NCBI RefSeq assembly: GCF_020630935.1
Contig: NZ_JAHDIG010000005.1
Span: 1-64,000, forward strand
Length of the DNA stretch: 64,000 nucleotides
Reading direction: 5' to 3'
From: Bernardetia sp.
Lineage (GTDB): Bacteria; Bacteroidota; Bacteroidia; Cytophagales; Bernardetiaceae
Shown piece by piece: positions 3,189 to 63,821 of this stretch. The notes under the pieces were generated by a model. It was given only the letters and a program-made list of their open reading frames with translations. It was not told the origin of the DNA and searched no databases. The position numbers and the translations under genes were made by a program. The first letter of the stretch is position 1. Each line of letters opens with the position of its first letter.

Positions 3189-3397
3189 ACGAGTAAATGA
3201 TTGAGAGTGATAAGAAATAAAAAATGTCTTTCAAAATTATAGTTCCTTTATACAACTTGCAATTACCTACAAGGTTTTTACAATTTTATTTTGATGGGGA
3301 TACATAAAATTATCAAAGACAGTTAAAAATACTGGTTTTTTGCATATTTTATTTACATTTACTTCAATCCCTTTAGTTCATTAATCGTTCATTTCTG

Positions 3398-5600: not shown

Positions 5601-6525
5601 AAATTATTCTAGCTCCATTGCCTTCACAGACAGGATTGATATAGGTTTGAATAGGAATATCTACTTCTTGATAAACTTTTTCTAAGGCATTTTTAATTAT
5701 TTCAGCTTGTTCTTTACCTTTTGCCATTGCGAAAATAGAAGGACCAGACCCAGAAATTCCAAAAGCAAGTGCGTCGTTTTCTAGTGCTGCTTGTTTCATT
5801 TCTTTAAATTTAGGAATCAGCAGACTTCGCATCGGCTCAATAACCAAATCTTGTAATGATTCTGAAAATAAATCATAATTTTTTTCATACAAACTGACAA
5901 CAAACGTTCCCATCAGTCCCATTTGCTTGCTAAAAGTAGCTACTGAAAGCGTAGATTTTAAGATTTTTCTTGAATCAGAAGTATTAAGTTTTACGTGTGG
6001 ATAGAGTGTAACAGCATATAAATCTTCCAAAACTGGAAGCTGTAAAATATCGCTTTGTTTGTTTCCTTTGGAGAGAATAATTCCACCCAAAAGAGAAGGG
6101 GCAACATTATCTACGTGTGCACTTCCACACGCCACACGTTCGCCTTCGGCTGCAAAAGCAACCAATTCTTTTGTAGAATATGGTTTTCCGATAAGTTCAT
6201 TATATCCAAAAGCTGCTACTGCACTGCTGGCACTGCTAGAACCCAAACCACTACCTGAAGAGAAGCCTTTTTTCAAGACAATATCAACACCCATAAATTC
6301 ATTGTGGGCTTCCTGCATCTTTCGAATCACGACAGACGAACAGTTTTTATCAACTTCTTTGGGAAGATTTTCTCCATTTATGATTTCTAAAATTTTGTTT
6401 TCGGTAGTGCCATTAGGAGTAAGTGTAATTTCATCACCCATATTTCCCAAAGAAAGCCCTAGAATATCAAAACCGACATTGAAGTTGGCAATAGTGGCTG
6501 GTGCGAAGGCTGTTATTTTTTTCAT
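5599..6525 (-). CDS. thrB: Homoserine kinase
   Basis: GHMP kinase motif GSGLGSSSASSAVAAF. Probable start at MKKITAFAPATIANFNVGFD (6525); the listed ORF extends upstream to 6606. Confidence 0.85.
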   Translation of the reverse strand: MKKITAFAPATIANFNVGFDILGLSLGNMGDEITLTPNGTTENKILEIINGENLPKEVDKNCSSVVIRKMQEAHNEFMGVDIVLKKGFSSGSGLGSSSASSAVAAFGYNELIGKPYSTKELVAFAAEGERVACGSAHVDNVAPSLLGGIILSKGNKQSDILQLPVLEDLYAVTLYPHVKLNTSDSRKILKSTLSVATFSKQMGLMGTFVVSLYEKNYDLFSESLQDLVIEPMRSLLIPKFKEMKQAALENDALAFGISGSGPSIFAMAKGKEQAEIIKNALEKVYQEVDIPIQTYINPVCEGNGARII

Positions 6526-6625
6526 TTTTACATTAAAAAAGTAGGTCAAATGGCTTGCCTTTGACCTAATAATAGAACAATAACCCTCAATAAGAAGTAA
6601 AGCCATCGTTGAGGATTGAAAGGTT

Positions 6626-9913: not shown

Positions 9914-11425
9914 TTACAACGGCAACTCTACAAAAAACGTAGTTCCTTCATTTTCTTTGGTTTCAAACCAAATTTTACCATTGTGCTTTTCTACAATTTT
10001 TTTTGTAATATCTAAACCCAAACCACTTCCCTCTCCTTCTTTTTTTGTTGTAAAGAAAGCATCAAAAATTTTGCCTTGTACATTTTTTGGAATGCCTGTT
10101 CCTGTATCTTCTACGGAAACAAGTGCTTTTTTGTTATCGGTTTTTCCAGTTTGTTTAACAGAGATAGTTATCTGACCTTTCTTTTTTATTGCTTGCATAG
10201 CATTGTGTATGAGGTTTGTCCAAACCTGTACGAGTTCGTCTGGATACCCCATAAATATCGGAATAGCTTCCATGTTGAGGTGTAGGTCTATTCTATTTCG
10301 AAGCTGATTTTCATAGAGTATTAGTGTATCTTCTATACTTCGCTTTATATTGACAGACTGCTTTTCTCCTAATTGGTCTTGACGAGAAAAATTTTTGAGT
10401 GCAAAGATTATTTTTGATGCCTTATCAGTAGCTAGGCGTATCATTTTACTGCTTTTGGCAATACTAGCAAGCTGAAAAGCTACTTTGAAGGTATAAGAAG
10501 GGTCTTTTATTTCAAGCAATGGAAGATAAATTTCTGGACTTGAGTGTAAGCCTAACTCAACTATCAAATTAGCAATTGTTTCTGCATTATCTATGTCTCT
10601 TTCCTCTAAGTCTTCTATCAGTGCATACTTTGCATTTCGTGTTTCTCTTGAAGACAAGCTAACCTTTGATGCTACTGAATATTCTATTAATCTGTTGAAA
10701 ACAGCAGAATCTTCTTTAGATAATCCGTATAAGAAGCTAGAAAGACGAGGAAGAAGTTCGTCCATCGCAACAATAGAGCTATCAGCCGAAGAACGAATTG
10801 CGCCTAGTGGAGTATTTATCTCATGTGCGATATTGGCTGTTAGTTGTCCTAAAGTTGCCAGTTTTTCTTTTTCGATAAGTTGGTTTTGAGCTTCTTGCAC
10901 CTTACGCATTTGCTCTTGTAAGTCTTTGAATTTCAAACGCAACTCTAATTGTGTTACTACCTGATTGCCAAGAGTTTTTAGGGCAAATTTCTGAGCTTCT
11001 GTAAGTTTTTTAGGTGTGTTATCTATAACACAAAGTGTTCCTAACTTCAATCCGTTAGGGTTTTTGAGAGGCATCCCTGCGTAAAAGCGAATTTGTAATC
11101 CATCTTCATCAGCCACTAAGGGATTATCATGAAAACGTTCATCCTCCAAAGCATTTTCCACTTCAAAGACATCATCTTGTAAAATGGCATGAGCGCAGAA
11201 AGCTAAATCTCTATGAGTTTCATCAGCATCCAAACCCACCTTTGCTTTGAACCATTGACGTTCGGAATCTATGAGAGAAACTAAAGAAATTTCAGCTTCA
11301 CAGATTTGAGAAGCAAGTTGTACCAAATCATCAAACTCCTTTTCAGCATCCGTATCTAATACTTCATAGCTTAGAAGAGCTTGCAAGCGCTCACTTTCAT
11401 CATGAGGTAAAGGTGCAGAAATCAT
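9914..11425 (-). CDS. Sensor histidine kinase with an N-terminal GAF domain
   Basis: GAF-like N-terminus. H-box HEINTPLGAI, then N/G1/G2 boxes (...NLIHNA..., DTGTGIP, GSGLGLDITKKIV). Confidence 0.9.
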   Translation of the reverse strand: MISAPLPHDESERLQALLSYEVLDTDAEKEFDDLVQLASQICEAEISLVSLIDSERQWFKAKVGLDADETHRDLAFCAHAILQDDVFEVENALEDERFHDNPLVADEDGLQIRFYAGMPLKNPNGLKLGTLCVIDNTPKKLTEAQKFALKTLGNQVVTQLELRLKFKDLQEQMRKVQEAQNQLIEKEKLATLGQLTANIAHEINTPLGAIRSSADSSIVAMDELLPRLSSFLYGLSKEDSAVFNRLIEYSVASKVSLSSRETRNAKYALIEDLEERDIDNAETIANLIVELGLHSSPEIYLPLLEIKDPSYTFKVAFQLASIAKSSKMIRLATDKASKIIFALKNFSRQDQLGEKQSVNIKRSIEDTLILYENQLRNRIDLHLNMEAIPIFMGYPDELVQVWTNLIHNAMQAIKKKGQITISVKQTGKTDNKKALVSVEDTGTGIPKNVQGKIFDAFFTTKKEGEGSGLGLDITKKIVEKHNGKIWFETKENEGTTFFVELPL

Positions 11426-23068: not shown

Positions 23069-23086
23069 AGTGAAAAAATTAAAATG

Positions 23087-23118
23087 AACAATGGATAATT
23101 AATTTAATTATCCATTGT
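23087..23118. terminator. Bidirectional terminator hairpin (15-bp stem ACAATGGATAATTAA/TTAATTATCCATTGT) between convergent genes
   Basis: Perfect palindrome read directly from the sequence. Confidence 0.55.
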
Positions 23119-23131
23119 CCACTGGATGGAT

Positions 23132-27522: not shown

Positions 27523-30006
27523 TTACTCTTTACTTTCTGTATTTTCAGGCAATTTCAAGCTATCCAAAACGCTGCTGAGTTGTGTGCCTTTCAGAAGATT
27601 TGCAAACACGTCTGCCACAGAGTTTCCTCCCAAAATTGCGAGTGGAGCCATCGAATCTGCCATTTTTTGAGCAAGTGCTTTATCAGAAAACGATTGCAAG
27701 GCTGCAATAAGGTCTGGAGAAACAGCTTTTGCTTTGGCTACTACTGCCTCTACTTCTGTTTGTTCTTCCAAAATGTACTGCTCTAGCTGTTTTTGAGCTT
27801 TTTCTATCTCAACGGCATCTTTAGCTCTTTGTCTAGTAAGTTCGTCTTCATTGATTTGATTGAGCGTTTTTTGTTCGTCTAAATTAGCTTGTAAATGACG
27901 CTCCTTACTCATTATTTCACTTTCAATTTTAGATAAAGTAACTTCTAAGAGTTTTTTGACTTCTTCTTTTTGAAGTTCGTAGATTTTCTGCTTAGTTTCA
28001 GATTGTGTAGCTGCGATTTGTCTTGTAATGGCTTCGCTTTCTTGTGTAAATTCTAATTTTCGTTTTTCAGCATTTATGCGAAGTGTTTGCATAACTGTAT
28101 CTTGCTGTGAAGAAATAAGTAGATTTTCAATATTTGCATCACCCAAACTTATATCCAAAATCTCAACGTCGTAGATACGCATTCCATTTTCTTCAAAAAG
28201 TCGTCCTGTGCGTTTCCCTGTTTTCTTGTCAGACTCTCCTAAAATAGCATCTCTCAAAATCGTAATTCCATTGGCATAAAATTCCATAATTGGATATCTT
28301 CTGACAGTATTTCGGATATACGAACGCATGTGGTCTGTTAAAAATTTGACATAGTTTTCCACATTAAACCACTTTTCAGAATCTCCTTCAAAATTGACAC
28401 GATACGAAAGATGTATTCTAACTTGCGTGTAATCTGCCGATTCTGCCATTATCTCATCCGAAACTTTATTATACAACACTCTCAAATAAACCGTTTTGAT
28501 AGAATTTGCTGTTGTTTTTGGTGTTCCTGTTGAAAGCTCTATACCTTCTAATTCTTCATCGTATTCCAAAAGATACGATTGAGGACCTTCAATGACTTTT
28601 CGTTTTCCTGTCTTGCTAACCACTAAAACAGCATATCCTGTCCAAGGCGCAATCGTAACAGCTCCTTCAAATTTTGTATCTAATGTCACCATACGAGGTG
28701 GCGTAAACGAACTATCACGATTAAATTCGTCGCTTACTACTTCGTCTGCAATCTTAGCTTTTTTTCGTAATTGTTGTTGTGGAGCTTCTGGTGCTTGATT
28801 TTGTTCTTGTAATTCAAAATCAGTAACGAAATTATCGTTTTTAGCAATACTTTGCATCGCCATATTGTACTCCATTGCTTCATTGTTATTTGGAAACCAA
28901 AGTGATGTTTGCTTTTTTGTCAAAACTCTTCGTACCAAAACAAATTCTCTTGGGTCTGGCAAAAACATCGCTGCACCTTTTTTGAGAGCGACTGTTCCTG
29001 TTTTACGATTGAGGTAATAACGTCCTTCTCCTGCTGGAATAGCAATGGCATAATGACGTTCTTTTTTTCCATAACGAATAATGGCGTGTTCTGGGCGAGG
29101 ATAATAAATCATTTGGTCTTTTCCAGTAATGAAAAGCTCGTCGCCTTCTTTATACTCGTTTTTTCCTTCTTTATAAGGAGCAATGACTTTTATATAGAGT
29201 CCACTCATTTCATTGAGTTCGATGGCTTTAAATTTTCGTTGTCCATTTTTCTCAATAAACTCTTCTGTTGGTTCTGGAAAGACTACTTTTGGACCTTGAA
29301 TATAGCGTTTGTTTCCATCTTCGTTGAGCAAAATACAGTATTCCAAACGTTCTAAAGTTACAGCCTCTCGCACATATTCATCTGTTTCGTAACCGTATGA
29401 GTCTGTTCTGACCACTTCAATTCCTGTGGGTGGAATATAAAACGAAACAGCATCGCCACGAATAATCAGAAGCTGACCCATTGTAAGACTTTCAGCTACT
29501 TTTTTGAGTTCTTTTACTTCTTTATCCTCTCCTTCTTTTGTTTTGATGACGGATTTACCCCAATTTTCTCGTGCTTGTTGTTCATCATACACACGAACCA
29601 ATAAATATTGATTCGAACTCAAATTATGTCCTCTGACTACTCTTGCCATTTGTCCAGCCCAAAGTGCAAAAGAAATAGGACCTGAAATATTTACTTTTCT
29701 TCCTACATTGAGTTCGGCTAAATTGTTACTTGTTCCTACTTTTGGTGGGTTATTATCTTTTGAAGGGTTTTTCAAAACTATATACCATCCTTCTGGTGCA
29801 ATGACAAAAGAACGCATCGAATCTTCTAAAGTACATTTTTCGAAACGTTTGGTTTCGTCGTCGAACATCACAGGACGGTCAGTATTGGCAAGGCTAGTTT
29901 TGTAAGGACCTACATAAACATTGATATTTCCTTTAGTTTGGTCAGAAATAAATGCGTACTCATTAGGAGCTAAAACTAAATCTCTTTCTCGGTTACTATC
30001 AGACAT
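27523..30006 (-). CDS. Major vault protein (MVP) homolog
   Basis: N-terminus PNEYAFISDQTKGNINVYVGPYKTSL...RPVMFDDE parallels the first MVP repeat of eukaryotic MVP ([36 protein letters not shown]). About 8 tandem ~55-aa repeats, a shoulder region, a long C-terminal coiled-coil cap-helix, and a C-terminal ...PLAILGGNSVADVFANLL region resembling the MVP cap ring. Confidence 0.8.
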   Translation of the reverse strand: MSDSNRERDLVLAPNEYAFISDQTKGNINVYVGPYKTSLANTDRPVMFDDETKRFEKCTLEDSMRSFVIAPEGWYIVLKNPSKDNNPPKVGTSNNLAELNVGRKVNISGPISFALWAGQMARVVRGHNLSSNQYLLVRVYDEQQARENWGKSVIKTKEGEDKEVKELKKVAESLTMGQLLIIRGDAVSFYIPPTGIEVVRTDSYGYETDEYVREAVTLERLEYCILLNEDGNKRYIQGPKVVFPEPTEEFIEKNGQRKFKAIELNEMSGLYIKVIAPYKEGKNEYKEGDELFITGKDQMIYYPRPEHAIIRYGKKERHYAIAIPAGEGRYYLNRKTGTVALKKGAAMFLPDPREFVLVRRVLTKKQTSLWFPNNNEAMEYNMAMQSIAKNDNFVTDFELQEQNQAPEAPQQQLRKKAKIADEVVSDEFNRDSSFTPPRMVTLDTKFEGAVTIAPWTGYAVLVVSKTGKRKVIEGPQSYLLEYDEELEGIELSTGTPKTTANSIKTVYLRVLYNKVSDEIMAESADYTQVRIHLSYRVNFEGDSEKWFNVENYVKFLTDHMRSYIRNTVRRYPIMEFYANGITILRDAILGESDKKTGKRTGRLFEENGMRIYDVEILDISLGDANIENLLISSQQDTVMQTLRINAEKRKLEFTQESEAITRQIAATQSETKQKIYELQKEEVKKLLEVTLSKIESEIMSKERHLQANLDEQKTLNQINEDELTRQRAKDAVEIEKAQKQLEQYILEEQTEVEAVVAKAKAVSPDLIAALQSFSDKALAQKMADSMAPLAILGGNSVADVFANLLKGTQLSSVLDSLKLPENTESKE

Positions 30007-30289
30007 AAGTGTTTGTGATTAAGTTAAAATGATAAGCTAAACTTGATGATAGAATTTTTTTGCTGGTAGATTTTAATTCCTTAATCTTAGTGTAAAATAT
30101 ACAATAAGTTGTTTTGTTTTTATTAACGCTACTCTACATGTAAAGGTTTCATTATTTTAGAATAAATGTGTTTTTTTTACACTAAGTTGCTTTTGTGATT
30201 TTTTAATTCGTTATATCTCAATACTAATCCAAACTACAATGTAGTAGTAATCCGTTTTTATTCTAGTTATCCATTTTTAAATTATTCGT

Positions 30290-30526
30290 TTAATCAACAG
30301 GGTCATATCCACTTCCTCCCCACGGATGGCATCGTCCTATACGCTTTATGCCTTTCCATCCTCCTTTGAAAGGACCATACTTTTTAATAGCTTCTACCAT
30401 ATATGCTGAACAGGTAGGAGTGTACCTACAACGAGGAGGCAATATAGGTGAGATGAAGTATTGATAGAAACGTACAATAGCCAGAAAAATGAATGAGAAG
30501 AACTGAGAAATGTATTTTAGTACCAC
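30290..30526 (-). CDS. yidD: Membrane protein insertion efficiency factor YidD
   Basis: FYQ(Y)[28 protein letters not shown]...[14 protein letters not shown] matches the YidD signature. Confidence 0.85.
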
Positions 30527-33883: not shown

Positions 33884-34942
33884 ATGAAAACTTACATAGC
33901 GTTATTTTTTTCTCTTTTGTTTTTAGTTTCGTGTAGTAAAGAAGATACGGAAGCTGAAAAGCAAAATTATAAAATGGGTTTTACCACCTTTCCTTATGAG
34001 TTCAGCATAGAATCAGTAAACGATACATATAATTTTATTGAGCAAAATGCTGATATTTATTCAGAACACATAGACAATACTATTCCTTGGGATGCTCTTA
34101 TCAACCAAACGGAATTACCCACAGCTTTTACAGACGAGATAAATTCAAAAGTCAATCGTAAAATCAATTCTCATCCACTTCTACTTTCTGTCAGCATTTT
34201 GAACACCTTGCGTACCGACCTAGAAAATGACTTTGATGGACAAGTTCCAACCTACACTTCTCTTTCTGATGAACATATAGAAAATGGGTATTTTAGGTAT
34301 TTAGAATATTTGATAGATAGGCTTTCTCCAAACTACTTGGTAATGGCTATGGAAGTAAACGAACTCAAAAAAAATAATCCTACAAAATGGGAAGAGTACA
34401 AGCAGCTTGGAGATAACATCAGAAGTCGTTTAAAAACAAAATATCCATCTTTGAAAATAGCTGAATCATTCACGTTACATAACTGGTATGAAAAGCCCAC
34501 AGATTTTGTGAATGAGATAAGAGAATACAGTAGCAAATCTGACTTTTTAGCCATTAGTTTTTATCCATTCATTATGAATAAACACACAGAAGAGGAATTT
34601 CAGGCAGCTTTTGATTTTCTCCATTCACAAACTTCAAAGCCGATTGCTTTTGTTGAAACCAACACCATAGCACAAAATTTATCTATCCCAAATTTAGATG
34701 TTTTTATTCCTTCTTCTCAAGCAGAACAAAAAGTCTATTTAGAAACACTTTTAAAAAATGCTCAAAAACAAAAGTATGAATTTGTTATTTGGTGGGCGCA
34801 CCGAGATTATGATAGATTATTGCCATTCTTTCCAGAAGAAGCTAAAGATATAGGATTGATTTGGAGAGACACAGGTCTTTTAGATGAAGATGGAAATCAG
34901 CGACTTGCTTTTTCTGTTTGGAAGGAAAATTTTGATAGGTAA
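33884..34942 (+). CDS. Hypothetical lipoprotein
   Basis: Lipobox LFLVSCSKED. No family recognised (possibly a glycoside-hydrolase-like TIM barrel). Confidence 0.45.
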   Translation: MKTYIALFFSLLFLVSCSKEDTEAEKQNYKMGFTTFPYEFSIESVNDTYNFIEQNADIYSEHIDNTIPWDALINQTELPTAFTDEINSKVNRKINSHPLLLSVSILNTLRTDLENDFDGQVPTYTSLSDEHIENGYFRYLEYLIDRLSPNYLVMAMEVNELKKNNPTKWEEYKQLGDNIRSRLKTKYPSLKIAESFTLHNWYEKPTDFVNEIREYSSKSDFLAISFYPFIMNKHTEEEFQAAFDFLHSQTSKPIAFVETNTIAQNLSIPNLDVFIPSSQAEQKVYLETLLKNAQKQKYEFVIWWAHRDYDRLLPFFPEEAKDIGLIWRDTGLLDEDGNQRLAFSVWKENFDR

Positions 34943-34953
34943 TATTGTTATCT

Positions 34954-35018
34954 TGTAGGTTAAAGGCTTGTCTTCAACTTATATTTATTTTGTATCAAAG
35001 GCAAGTCTTTGCCCTACA
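34954..35018. repeat. REP-like imperfect palindrome, left flank of the HuH transposase gene
   Basis: TTGTAGGTTAAAGGCTTGTC...TCAAAGGCAAGTCTTTGCCCTACA, with internal hairpins GTAGG/CCTAC and GGCAA/TTGCC. About 80% identical to 35595-35665. Confidence 0.5.
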
Positions 35019-35047
35019 TTCTGAATTGTAAAATATGATTTTGAAAA

Positions 35048-35572
35048 ATGAAAGACAAAAATTACCGAAGACCAATTATCAGAGCCAGTTGGTGGGATTA
35101 TGGTTGGAATGGTGCGTATTTCATTACTATTTGTACTAAAAATAAAGAACATTTTTTCGGAGAAATAAAAGATAAAAAAATGTATCTTTCTCACGTTGGA
35201 GTAATTGTAGATGTGCTTTGGCATCAAATTCCAATGTACAGACCATATTTAGAATTAGAGGAATTCGTAATTATGCCAAATCATTTACACGCCATCATCA
35301 CAATAGATAAACCTCAAGAAATAGAATCAGATACAACAGATGATTTCACAACAACACGATTTCAGAATCAAGGAAAAGATACTATTTCTTCTATCATTGG
35401 AGGTTTTAAATCTGGAGTTACAAAACACATAAATCGGTTAGGATTAGAATCTGCTTGGCAAGAAAGATTTCATGACCACATTATCCGAAATGAAAAATCA
35501 TATCAAAGAATCGCAAATTATATTCAAACCAATGTAGAAAACTGGGAAGATGATAGATTTTATACGCCATAA
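35048..35572 (+). CDS. HuH-family Y1 tyrosine transposase (IS200-like / REP-associated tyrosine transposase)
   Basis: HuH motif PNHLHAII, C-terminal catalytic Tyr region (SYQRIANYIQTN). ~170-aa size typical of IS200/REP-associated tyrosine transposases. Flanked by palindromic repeats. Confidence 0.75.
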   Translation: MKDKNYRRPIIRASWWDYGWNGAYFITICTKNKEHFFGEIKDKKMYLSHVGVIVDVLWHQIPMYRPYLELEEFVIMPNHLHAIITIDKPQEIESDTTDDFTTTRFQNQGKDTISSIIGGFKSGVTKHINRLGLESAWQERFHDHIIRNEKSYQRIANYIQTNVENWEDDRFYTP

Positions 35573-35594
35573 ATTGAATATGAAATCGTATTTA

Positions 35595-35665
35595 TTGTAG
35601 GTTAAAGGCTCGCCTTTAACTGTATTTACATTATTATTTGTCAAAGGCAAGCCTTTGCCCTACAC
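35595..35665. repeat. REP-like imperfect palindrome, right flank of the HuH transposase gene (direct repeat of 34954-35018)
   Basis: TTGTAGGTTAAAGGCTCGCC...TCAAAGGCAAGCCTTTGCCCTACA. Confidence 0.5.
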
Positions 35666-35670
35666 TTTTT

Positions 35671-36237
35671 TCATTTTATTCCCAAAAACTCAAGAAATCT
35701 TCTAAATTTAGATTTTTTATTGGCAGATTCTTCGATTCTTTTCCAAAACTGTTCAGTTTCATCTATATGTTTTTTCGCTTTTTCTACCAATTCCTCATCA
35801 GTCCATAGCGAATCTTTTGTAATTAATTTTTCATCTGATTTTTTAGGTCTAATATATCCATCAGCTATACTCACATAATCATGAAGTATACCCTCATACA
35901 CTTTCCAAAGAGAACCTTCATATAAGAAACGCATAGATTTTGTGTGTTTTTCTTCTTTTTTGTCTAAACAGAATATATCGCCCTTGTTTGGTTGGTAGTT
36001 AAAATCAAAGACTTGTGCTTCTTCATTGTTAAGATATTCAAGTACTGTATCTGCTTTTAAATCTTCCTCAAGCATATCCTCAGACATTAGAGCCAAACCA
36101 AGAATAACTTTTTTTTCTAAATTTAATATTCGTTCTGTACTACGATACAATTTCCAAGTAATATTTGGATATAAACTTGAAGCAATCTCTTCATTTTTAC
36201 ACGTACAGAAAATTATTCCTTCTTTTGATTGGCACAT
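35671..36237 (-). CDS. Hypothetical protein
   Basis: ORF with coding character. No family recognised. Confidence 0.4.
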   Translation of the reverse strand: MCQSKEGIIFCTCKNEEIASSLYPNITWKLYRSTERILNLEKKVILGLALMSEDMLEEDLKADTVLEYLNNEEAQVFDFNYQPNKGDIFCLDKKEEKHTKSMRFLYEGSLWKVYEGILHDYVSIADGYIRPKKSDEKLITKDSLWTDEELVEKAKKHIDETEQFWKRIEESANKKSKFRRFLEFLGIK

Positions 36238-37327: not shown

Positions 37328-37421
37328 AGATAGATAGATAATGGATGACTAGAAATTATTAACTAATAACTTTACATTAACAGTAAGGCTAAGGCATGCC
37401 TTAGCCTCTACGAATATAAAC

Positions 37422-63125: not shown

Positions 63126-63821
63126 AATATTGTAGTTAATAAATGGGTAGTAGATACATTACTGCATGAAATCTTGACAATTAATTAACTTAACTATACG
63201 CAATAGATATACTATTTAATAAAAAACAGTGATACTATTAAGTAAATGTTATCACAGTTAATGTTGTACATCAGTCTGCTTGACTGATTTGTAAAATAAA
63301 AAACTTAATTTTTTAAATAAAGCCTTATAAATTTTCCCATCAGACTAGAAGCCTGACCTACGTAAAAAACTGTGACGACCATTAGTAAGTTATAGGGGAA
63401 GTTAAATTTTGACAAAAATACTAATATGATTTGGAATTTGTATTAAAATACTACCAAAATATCTAAATAATACCTATTATGTAAAATATTATCATGAATT
63501 ATAGTATATATCTAATCTCAATTATCAGAGCAAAATATATTCCATTATTATTGCAATAATTGACGCAAGTATCTAATAGTCAGTTGTATAGCAATTTTTT
63601 AAATTCTTTGTAATGGAGTGTGTTTTTTACTGGAAAAGTTGATTGATTTGAAATAATATACAAAAAAAAGTCAAAATATTAATAATTTTGAAAGTTGTCT
63701 TTTGATGATTCTATCTCATCCAAATAATGCTTTATTATTGAATGAGGTAGAAGCTATTTTCCAAAAAAAAACGCTTTATTATGAAAAATAATAAAGCGTT
63801 TTACCAAATAGTTTCAGATAT

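Follow-up and report, generated by a model that had tools for sequence, protein, structure and literature searches.

A REP-associated tyrosine transposase gene between doublets of its probable cognate REPs in marine Bernardetia

The 64-kb window, meaning the whole stretch of DNA analyzed here, from a Bernardetia sp. MAG, very probably contains a REPtron, that is, a single RAYT (TnpAREP) gene bracketed by cognate REPs. A REP-associated transposase lying between its own GTAG repeats is a well-described arrangement, known as the REPtron or REPIN-RAYT system from E. coli, Pseudomonas and others (PMC3116915, PMC3733652, PMC5581495, PMC6006769), and it is encountered here in marine Bernardetia. The cassette of REP doublet, gene and REP doublet measures 713 bp (34953-35665) and has the stop codon of a 352-aa gene (34942) close on one side and that of a 188-aa ORF (35671) close on the other.

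Results

The gene at 35048-35572 (+ strand, ATG start) encodes a RAYT/TnpAREP-type HuH tyrosine transposase of 174 aa. The original prediction had recognized in this ORF the HuH motif PNHLHAII and a C-terminal tyrosine region, and both are readily seen in the protein, the former as N78-H79-L-H81 and the latter as N157-Y158-IQT-N162, which follows W137-Q138 near the C-terminus in the stretch AWQERFHDHIIRNEKSYQRIANYIQTNVENW. The NCBIfam model NF047646 (REP_Tyr_transpos) matches residues 21-162 with an E value of 1.6e-17 and 63.7 bits, below the 80-bit equivalog cut-off; judged by its sequence, the protein is clearly homologous to this family yet appears to lie outside the curated equivalog. The Pfam profile Y1_Tnp (PF01797), named at the outset as a suitable check together with REP-transposase profiles, proved weakly positive, giving a partial match around the HuH motif at 17.5 bits, under the 23-bit gathering score, and the identification therefore leans on NCBIfam, on PDB sequence and on fold instead. 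The sole PDB sequence match of the protein is E. coli TnpAREP (4ER8, E 6.4e-6), and the same structure (4er8_A) is the top Foldseek match of the AlphaFold (AF2) model, with an E value of 9.1e-8 and TM scores of 0.51/0.54, followed at ranks 2-24 by TnpA proteins of the IS200/IS605 type (ISDra2, IS608). The quality of the AF2 model is moderate (pLDDT 74, pTM 0.72, one of five models confident). The proposed type, a REP-associated tyrosine transposase, is thus upheld by the NF047646 match and by 4ER8 as the best match in both sequence and fold.

Alignment of 26 homologues revealed that N78, H79, H81, Q138, Y158 and N162 are invariant, and that W137 is present in 25 of the 26. Y158 and N162 align to Y115 and N119 of the E. 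coli enzyme in a Y-x3-N arrangement, which is followed by valine in the Bernardetia clade (Y-IQT-N-V) and by proline (N-P) in the other relatives of the alignment. In the pairwise HMMER alignment to 4ER8, W137, Q138, D143, H144 and R147 fall on W94, Q95, E100, H101 and R104, which in E. coli TnpAREP are the residues that contact the GTAG guide (PMC6006769); the change from E to D at a GTAG-contact position is also known in subclasses 2.5 and 2.7 (PMC6006769).

The gene is intact, and a dN/dS of 0.07-0.14 against five congeners, at a dS of about 0.3-1.2, shows that purifying selection on it is strong. Its product is 100% identical to WP_291721430, 'transposase [Bernardetia sp.]', encoded on a MAG contig, and has about 3,900 homologues, mostly from Bacteroidota, many of which are labelled 'REP element-mobilizing transposase RayT' by JGI. 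One copy is present in the window, and a protein search found one close orthologue per Bernardetia genome; a paralogue of 67% identity, P0007, has the same sequencing run of origin. Three overlapping ORFs, 34985-35227 (-), 35498-35650 (-) and 35638-35808 (+), were considered as genes and judged to be mechanical artefacts because they run antisense to, or cross, the conserved gene and the REPs.

The two direct repeats of about 70 bp that had been said to flank the gene were recovered in a repeat search as two pairs of blocks, 34953-34979/35595-35621 (27 nt, 89% identical) and 34985-35018/35631-35664 (34 nt, 88% identical), with a variable central spacer parting the two blocks of each flanking repeat and full lengths of about 66 and 70 nt. 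Each flanking repeat is itself an inverted repeat, the arms being 84% complementary on the right (35596-35620/35640-35664) and 81% on the left (34954-34974/34998-35018), and the 25-nt arm patterns occur within the window at the flanks alone and in 0 of 100 dinucleotide shuffles of the window. The imperfect palindrome of the original prediction therefore stands but is refined: each repeat of about 70 bp is composed of two inverted 24-nt REPs, each with an 8-bp hairpin of its own and with the GTAG feet outermost. The consensus of the REP unit is GTAG-G[T/G][T/C]AAAGGC-NN-GCCTTT[A/G]AC.

The left doublet (34952-35020) has a 15-nt spacer and outward GTAG feet, and is made up of the units GTAGGTTAAAGGCTTGTCTTCAAC at 34955-34978 (+) and GTAGGGCAAAGACTTGCCTTTGAT at 34994-35017 (-), to which the covariance model assigns 35.9 and 37.7 bits. 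The right doublet (35594-35666) has a 19-nt spacer and comprises GTAGGTTAAAGGCTCGCCTTTAAC at 35597-35620 (+) and GTAGGGCAAAGGCTTGCCTTTGAC at 35640-35663 (-), scoring 46.0 and 45.9 bits in the same model. On the + strand both stems of the right doublet can be fully paired if the closing pair G35597·C35620 is counted, and a single G·A mismatch is present in the hairpin proper to its - strand unit. In the left doublet the stems have partly decayed; the stem of its outer REP is perfect in a 93%-identical relative that has the doublet at the same site. As single-stranded DNA the doublets fold from a GTAGG/CCTAC base with energies of -8 to -18 kcal/mol and z scores of -3.1 to -5.8 (-10.2/-8.1 kcal/mol for the left doublet; -13.3/-18.2 kcal/mol, z -4.1/-5.8, for the right). 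Being pairs of inverted REPs with a short spacer that can fold into one long hairpin, the flanking doublets are REPIN-like.

The same REP family is found on both sides of orthologues with 80-93% identity in five other Bernardetia genomes, namely B. litoralis DSM 6794 (L002), OM2101 (L004), a JGI contig (L005), Wsw4-3y2 (L132) and the P0002 contigs (L128-130), frequently in inverted doublets, in some cases in tandem arrays or as one 'double-foot' palindrome. The association of REP and gene is kept across at least six genomes. For comparison of the units themselves, 39 Bernardetia REPs were gathered by a pattern that required the GTAG foot and allowed at most two core mismatches, and were aligned without gaps. 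GTAG occupies the same position, 5' of the co-varying stem, in all 39 of these pattern-selected units, an invariance that is uninformative on conservation since the units were selected on this foot, and the high conservation of the stem is likewise in part a product of the selection. Across the 39 units pairing in the 8-bp helix reaches 91%, versus 36-66% for slid controls, and pairs 9-26 and 10-25 vary on both sides, for example from T-A in the window to C-G in congeners; such compensatory changes lend support to the predicted REP helix. Between species the REP arms are near-identical despite saturated synonymous sites and scrambled spacers, which points to constraint or homogenization. More distant relatives, with 67% identity, carry other GTAG palindromes (GTAGGGAAATGGCTTGCCTTTTCC in P0010 and GTAGGGCAAACGCATGCGTTTGCCCTAC in P0007), the pattern expected of cognate enzyme-REP pairs. 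A search of the window for the REP type flanking P0007 found none.

The covariance model of the REP unit (R1), run unfiltered over the 64-kb window, yielded the four flanking units at 36-46 bits and two additional palindromes, 6538-6569 and 37380-37411, and nothing else below E = 0.4 except weaker opposite-strand re-readings of those six palindromes. Further copies away from the gene, as anticipated in the original prediction, are present both in the window, at 6538-6569, and as dispersed extragenic copies in congeners. The copy at 6538-6569 (+ strand, 32 bits, E 3.8e-6) belongs to the same family and stands alone as a 'double-foot' REP, GTAGGTCAAA-T-GGCTTGCCTTTGACCTAA, that carries an insertion of 1 nt. 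Lying 28 kb from the transposase gene, it occupies the thrA-thrB spacer, bounded by the aspartokinase/homoserine dehydrogenase gene (stop 6626) and by the homoserine kinase gene, whose likely start is the internal ATG at 6525 because residue 32 of the maximal ORF is the first that the homoserine kinase profile matches. Its double-foot ends read GTAGG...CCTAA (6541-6569), those of the OM2101 locus L004 read GTAGG...CCTAC (10551-10578), and the corresponding palindrome upstream in L127 is GTAGGGCAAACGCATGCGTTTGCCCTAC. The palindrome at 37380-37411 (- strand, 25.2 bits, E 2.4e-4), whose sequence at 37383-37411 is GTAG-AGGCTAAGGC-AT-GCCTTAGCCT-TAC, is related but distinct and occupies the FloA-HslU spacer. 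Three congeners lack it in their orthologous spacers, which contain other, unrelated hairpin-forming sequences, and it probably belongs to another REP family.

Beyond the window, a scan of public genomes with GTAGGNNAAAGGCNNGCCTTT, the counts of which are lower bounds with B. litoralis, Wsw4-3y2 and the source MAG outside the matches listed, placed this REP core in many phyla among the matches listed. At least 10 dispersed places in OM2101 carry the REP, these being separate 8-kb chromosome blocks of which none is the RAYT locus; all 12 REP sites in the OM2101 blocks listed are extragenic, and six of the 12 are inverted doublets. The Bernardetia MAG CTOTU7301 has at least five contigs with the REP among the matches listed. 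A narrower scan of metagenomes gave 53 contigs, about 13 of them of low GC and with the Bernardetia variant, and none overlapping the window. Four 20-kb congener loci contain no REP beyond the gene's own flanks, so that this lineage may have a small REP family. Rfam, run over the whole window, gave no family at gathering score.

The cassette does not occupy the same place in all of these genomes. Its upstream junction, 3' of the 352-aa gene, is common to the window and the 93%-identical P0002 contigs, while in B. litoralis, OM2101 and the JGI contig the cassette lies between a gene with an MVP-shoulder domain and yidD, and in Wsw4-3y2 (87% amino acid identity) it follows a DUF445 gene. The cassette is thus found at no fewer than three unrelated chromosomal sites among close relatives and is not positionally fixed. 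In the window the MVP gene (27535-30006) and yidD (30293-30523) are adjacent, 5 kb from the cassette, and the 286-bp spacer between them (30007-30292) has no remnant of REP or gene, local alignment being no better than with shuffles and the covariance model giving nothing. In search of an empty target site, the sequence 3' of the 352-aa gene was compared between the window and OM2101; past the stop codon the two have nothing in common. Alignment of four loci indicates that homology begins and ends at the outer GTAG/CTAC feet, and the dS of the orthologues, about 1, is in line with that of neighboring genes.

Discussion

By homology with E. coli TnpAREP and IS608 TnpA, each Bernardetia REP would fold in single-stranded DNA into an 8-bp hairpin, leaving the GTAG foot unpaired on its 5' side. 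This hairpin would be bound by the enzyme, which may read the GTAG through the region of W137, Q138, D143, H144 and R147; H79, H81 and N162 would coordinate Mg2+, and the single strand would be cut and rejoined by way of a 5'-phosphotyrosine link to Y158. The inverted, REPIN-like doublets of about 65-95 nt would then be the likely mobilized units, non-autonomous and spread to extragenic sites by the product of one gene. Binding, cleavage and mobilization of the REPs by the 174-aa protein are inferred from these characterized enzymes; in the RAYT/REP literature compared, we met with no biochemical work on a Bacteroidota RAYT.

The E. coli TnpAREP (YafM) REPtron, whose enzyme is seen bound to a REP hairpin in 4ER8, has the same catalytic set of HuH, tyrosine and asparagine, and shares with the window system a conserved W-Q...[E/D]-H...R region and a gene bracketed by GTAG-tagged REP hairpins; it is the best PDB match in sequence and fold, with an identity of only about 21%. 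Unlike in E. coli, the REP stem in the window is AT-richer (AAAGGC/GCCTTT, with a 2-4-nt loop), the REPs form tail-to-tail inverted doublets on both sides, and the tyrosine motif is Y-x3-N-V rather than Y-x3-N-P. The host belongs to the Bacteroidota, as opposed to the Enterobacteriaceae for E. coli TnpAREP.

The REPIN-RAYT system of Pseudomonas fluorescens SBW25 (Bertels and Rainey 2011, PMC3116915) is built of the same inverted pair of REPs with a short spacer, foldable into one long hairpin. There, as here, a single enzyme gene has doublets on both flanks, others are scattered over extragenic sites, and different RAYT paralogues go with different REP families. The SBW25 system involves RAYT groups 2/3 in Proteobacteria and hundreds of copies, whereas the window, with about one dispersed copy in 64 kb, gives the impression of a low copy number, and, unlike in SBW25, the gene cassette of the window is not positionally stable among congeners.

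Within the published classifications, TnpAREP subclass 2.4 (Quentin et al. 2018, PMC6006769) equals RAYT group 4 (Bertels et al. 2017, PMC5581495). This subclass is characterized by NH[IFV]H, WQ and YIxNNP motifs and by 'double-foot' REPs of the form GT[AG]G ... C[TC]AC (PMC6006769), is hosted by Bacteroidetes, Cyanobacteria and scattered phyla (PMC6006769), and predominantly, not universally, has an in-frame REP insertion in the gene between the HuH and Tyr motifs (PMC6006769). The consensus of our aligned family, NHIH / WQ / YIxNNP, agrees with these motifs, and double-foot REPs are present in the window and in L004. In relatives of 55-60% identity, the region from the HuH to the Tyr motif contains a variable insert that encodes VETGHALSL, and in Cyclobacterium lianum (L131, 3323-3351) the DNA of this insert is the palindrome GTAGAGACAGGGCATGCCCTGTCTCTAC. 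The protein family is therefore likely to belong to subclass 2.4 / RAYT group 4, a placement made by motifs and shared features, not by published profiles. Membership of the window protein itself is only likely, because it reads NHLH / WQ / YIQTNV and its gene, a short 174-aa form, lacks the in-gene REP insertion, as do all members of the Bernardetia clade in the 26-homologue alignment. The supplements of PMC6006769 make no mention of Flexibacter/Bernardetia litoralis or of Cyclobacterium.

TnpA proteins of the IS200/IS605 group (IS608, ISDra2) share the HuH-Y1 fold and the recognition of hairpins in single-stranded DNA, and the identity of the cassette as an IS200/IS605 element was considered and rejected because its ends are identical and symmetric, tnpB is absent, the window has no second copy, Y1_Tnp is sub-threshold and independent REP copies exist; the neighboring 352-aa and 188-aa ORFs gave no match to an NCBIfam family or to TnpB. 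A broader form of this idea, in which the 713-bp unit is an autonomous IS200-like insertion sequence that has the REP doublets as its ends, the solitary REPs are MITE-like derivatives or footprints, and the gene is neither fixed nor domesticated, we regard as unlikely. It would account for the three or more unrelated contexts of the cassette among close relatives, for homology between loci that is bounded by the outer GTAG/CTAC feet, and for an MVP-YidD spacer in the window free of any remnant, although recombination between dispersed REPs could equally relocate the cassette. An autonomous element is hard to reconcile with a single copy in each of the 64-kb or 20-kb stretches examined and just one close orthologue from each genome in the protein search, with an orthologue dS of about 1 that matches neighboring housekeeping genes and not a recent spread, and with the existence of gene-less REP singlets and doublets; moreover there is no tnpB, and both ends are the same symmetric doublet in place of distinct left and right subterminal hairpins. 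Very improbable, in our judgment, is a reading of the palindromes as ordinary hairpins of regulatory or terminator function that lie between convergent genes and only incidentally beside a decaying and inactive transposase relic. It could draw on the position of both doublets at gene 3' ends (stops 34942 and 35671), on the extragenic, hairpin-forming nature of REPs in general and on the degeneration of the left doublet, but a relic is at odds with an intact gene under strong purifying selection, no terminator-like site (hairpin plus T-run) occurs in 34700-35900, the pairing of gene and REPs is kept in six genomes despite differing neighbors, and the GTAG foot takes the same position, 5' of a co-varying stem, in the 39 selected units. 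In the same interval, 34700-35900, a promoter scan found promoter-like sites to be no commoner than in shuffles.

With the REPtron as the preferred reading, the changing position of the cassette asks for an account of its own. The occupation of at least three unrelated sites at a dS of about 1, the end of homology at the outer GTAG feet and the clean alternative site suggest, quite tentatively, a mobile unit that is inherited vertically yet changes its place within Bernardetia chromosomes, and which would stand midway between autonomous IS200-like elements and RAYTs that, as in Proteobacteria, are fixed and 'domesticated'. Relocation could be either movement of the cassette as a unit or a shuffling by REP-REP recombination, and paralogy followed by differential loss is a possible origin of the differing sites.

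The system adds a clean and well-delimited case of REP and RAYT from a low-GC marine genus of Bacteroidota to a class that has been studied almost wholly in Proteobacteria. In annotation, the gene is best named a REP-associated tyrosine transposase and not a generic 'transposase', and the short intergenic GTAG palindromes of this genome are to be read as REPs, which are sites where assemblies break, substrates of recombination and possible structures of mRNA ends. The sole point of wider interest is that the cassette is not fixed in position among close relatives, which bears on how 'domesticated' RAYTs are.

Sites of the REP-RAYT-REP cassette

Comparison of close Bernardetia genomes revealed that the cassette, in which the REP-associated tyrosine transposase (RAYT) gene (window 35048-35572, + strand) lies between two REP doublets, is found at three or more distinct positions on the chromosome (window 34953-35665; L002, B. 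litoralis DSM 6794; L004, Bernardetia sp. OM2101; L005, a JGI contig; L132, Wsw4-3y2). The outer GTAG/CTAC feet mark the limits of homology between these loci. In three congeners the cassette occupies the site corresponding to the window's MVP-YidD spacer (30007-30292), which is empty and scar-free in the window. The ~824-aa protein encoded at 27535-30006 (- strand) is conserved across Bernardetia, with 90% identity to its L002 and L004 counterparts, which carry a major-vault-protein shoulder domain (PF11978); this domain is unusual for bacteria.

The cassette's neighbours in the window are a 352-aa lipoprotein-like ORF (33884-34942, + strand) and a 188-aa ORF (35671-36237, - strand), neither of which has a match in NCBIfam. 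OM2101 has the 352-aa gene (71% identity) at a different position, and no counterpart of the 188-aa ORF is present at the congener loci examined.

REP-plus-spacer units adjoining the RAYT gene in relatives are found in tandem, in two to four copies with periods of roughly 65-120 nt (L002 10533-10738; L005 9731-9976 and 10548-10766; L126 9760-9990); the repeated unit of L002 takes in roughly the final 30 nt of the RAYT gene. A long (AAACAC)n microsatellite of ~25 units fills the space between the two REPs of the doublet upstream of RAYT in OM2101 (L004 9798-9949).

A second RAYT and other palindromes

A second RAYT protein, P0007 (WP_291726539), is 67% identical to the window RAYT and is encoded on L127, a Logan SRR27418455 contig. 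The GTAG palindromes on either side of its gene differ from those of the window RAYT, the upstream one being GTAGGGCAAACGCATGCGTTTGCCCTAC. The two proteins come from the same sequencing run and have RefSeq accession numbers close together. P0007 would then be a putative product of the window's own genome, which probably harbors two RAYT/REP systems. Between FloA and HslU the window contains a GTAG-tagged perfect 10-bp palindrome, GTAG-AGGCTAAGGC-AT-GCCTTAGCCT-TAC (37380-37411, - strand), which three congeners lack in their orthologous spacers. It bears a loose resemblance to the palindrome downstream of P0007 (L127 665-697) and may therefore belong to a second REP family.

Two perfect 12-bp-stem palindromes preceded by GTGG or GTAA, GTGGACAATGGATAATTAAATTAATTATCCATTGTTCAT and GTAAAACGCTTTATTATTTTTCATAATAAAGCGTTTTTT (~23084-23122 and ~63766-63804, both - strand), are unrelated to the REP family; the latter ends in a T-run and would fit a terminator. 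A 42-bp match, 97.6% identical, links two Bernardetia-like metagenome contigs (L135 7887-7928 and L165 2887-2928) to an intergenic segment in B. litoralis (L002 4613-4654), possibly representing another small dispersed repeat.

REP sequences beyond the cassette

Alongside the RAYT-flanking type, a second REP type, GTAGGGAAAAGGC[AG][CT]GCCTTTTCC, is scattered through Bernardetia genomes, in OM2101 (L052 3993-4097; L123 831-929 and 2432-2536; L107 5797-5827) and in the Bernardetia MAG CTOTU7301 (L053). In Cyclobacterium lianum (L131 3001-3600, FRCY01000001), the coding sequence of a RAYT relative includes an in-frame double-foot REP (3323-3351). This gene is located inside a type I restriction-modification locus, where the start of an HsdR-like gene overlaps with its stop codon.

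Among the matches listed from the public-genome scan (L006-L125), genomes of several phyla contain repeated copies of the same REP core, GTAGG-NN-AAAGGC-NN-GCCTTT, often in double-foot palindromic form: Anaerolineae/Promineifilaceae, Ignavibacteria/Chlorobi OLB5, Saprospiraceae, a Flexibacter MAG, Omnitrophota and the Firmicute Faecousia. This recurrence suggests either that the recognition sequence is widely shared or that the enzyme-REP pair has spread horizontally.
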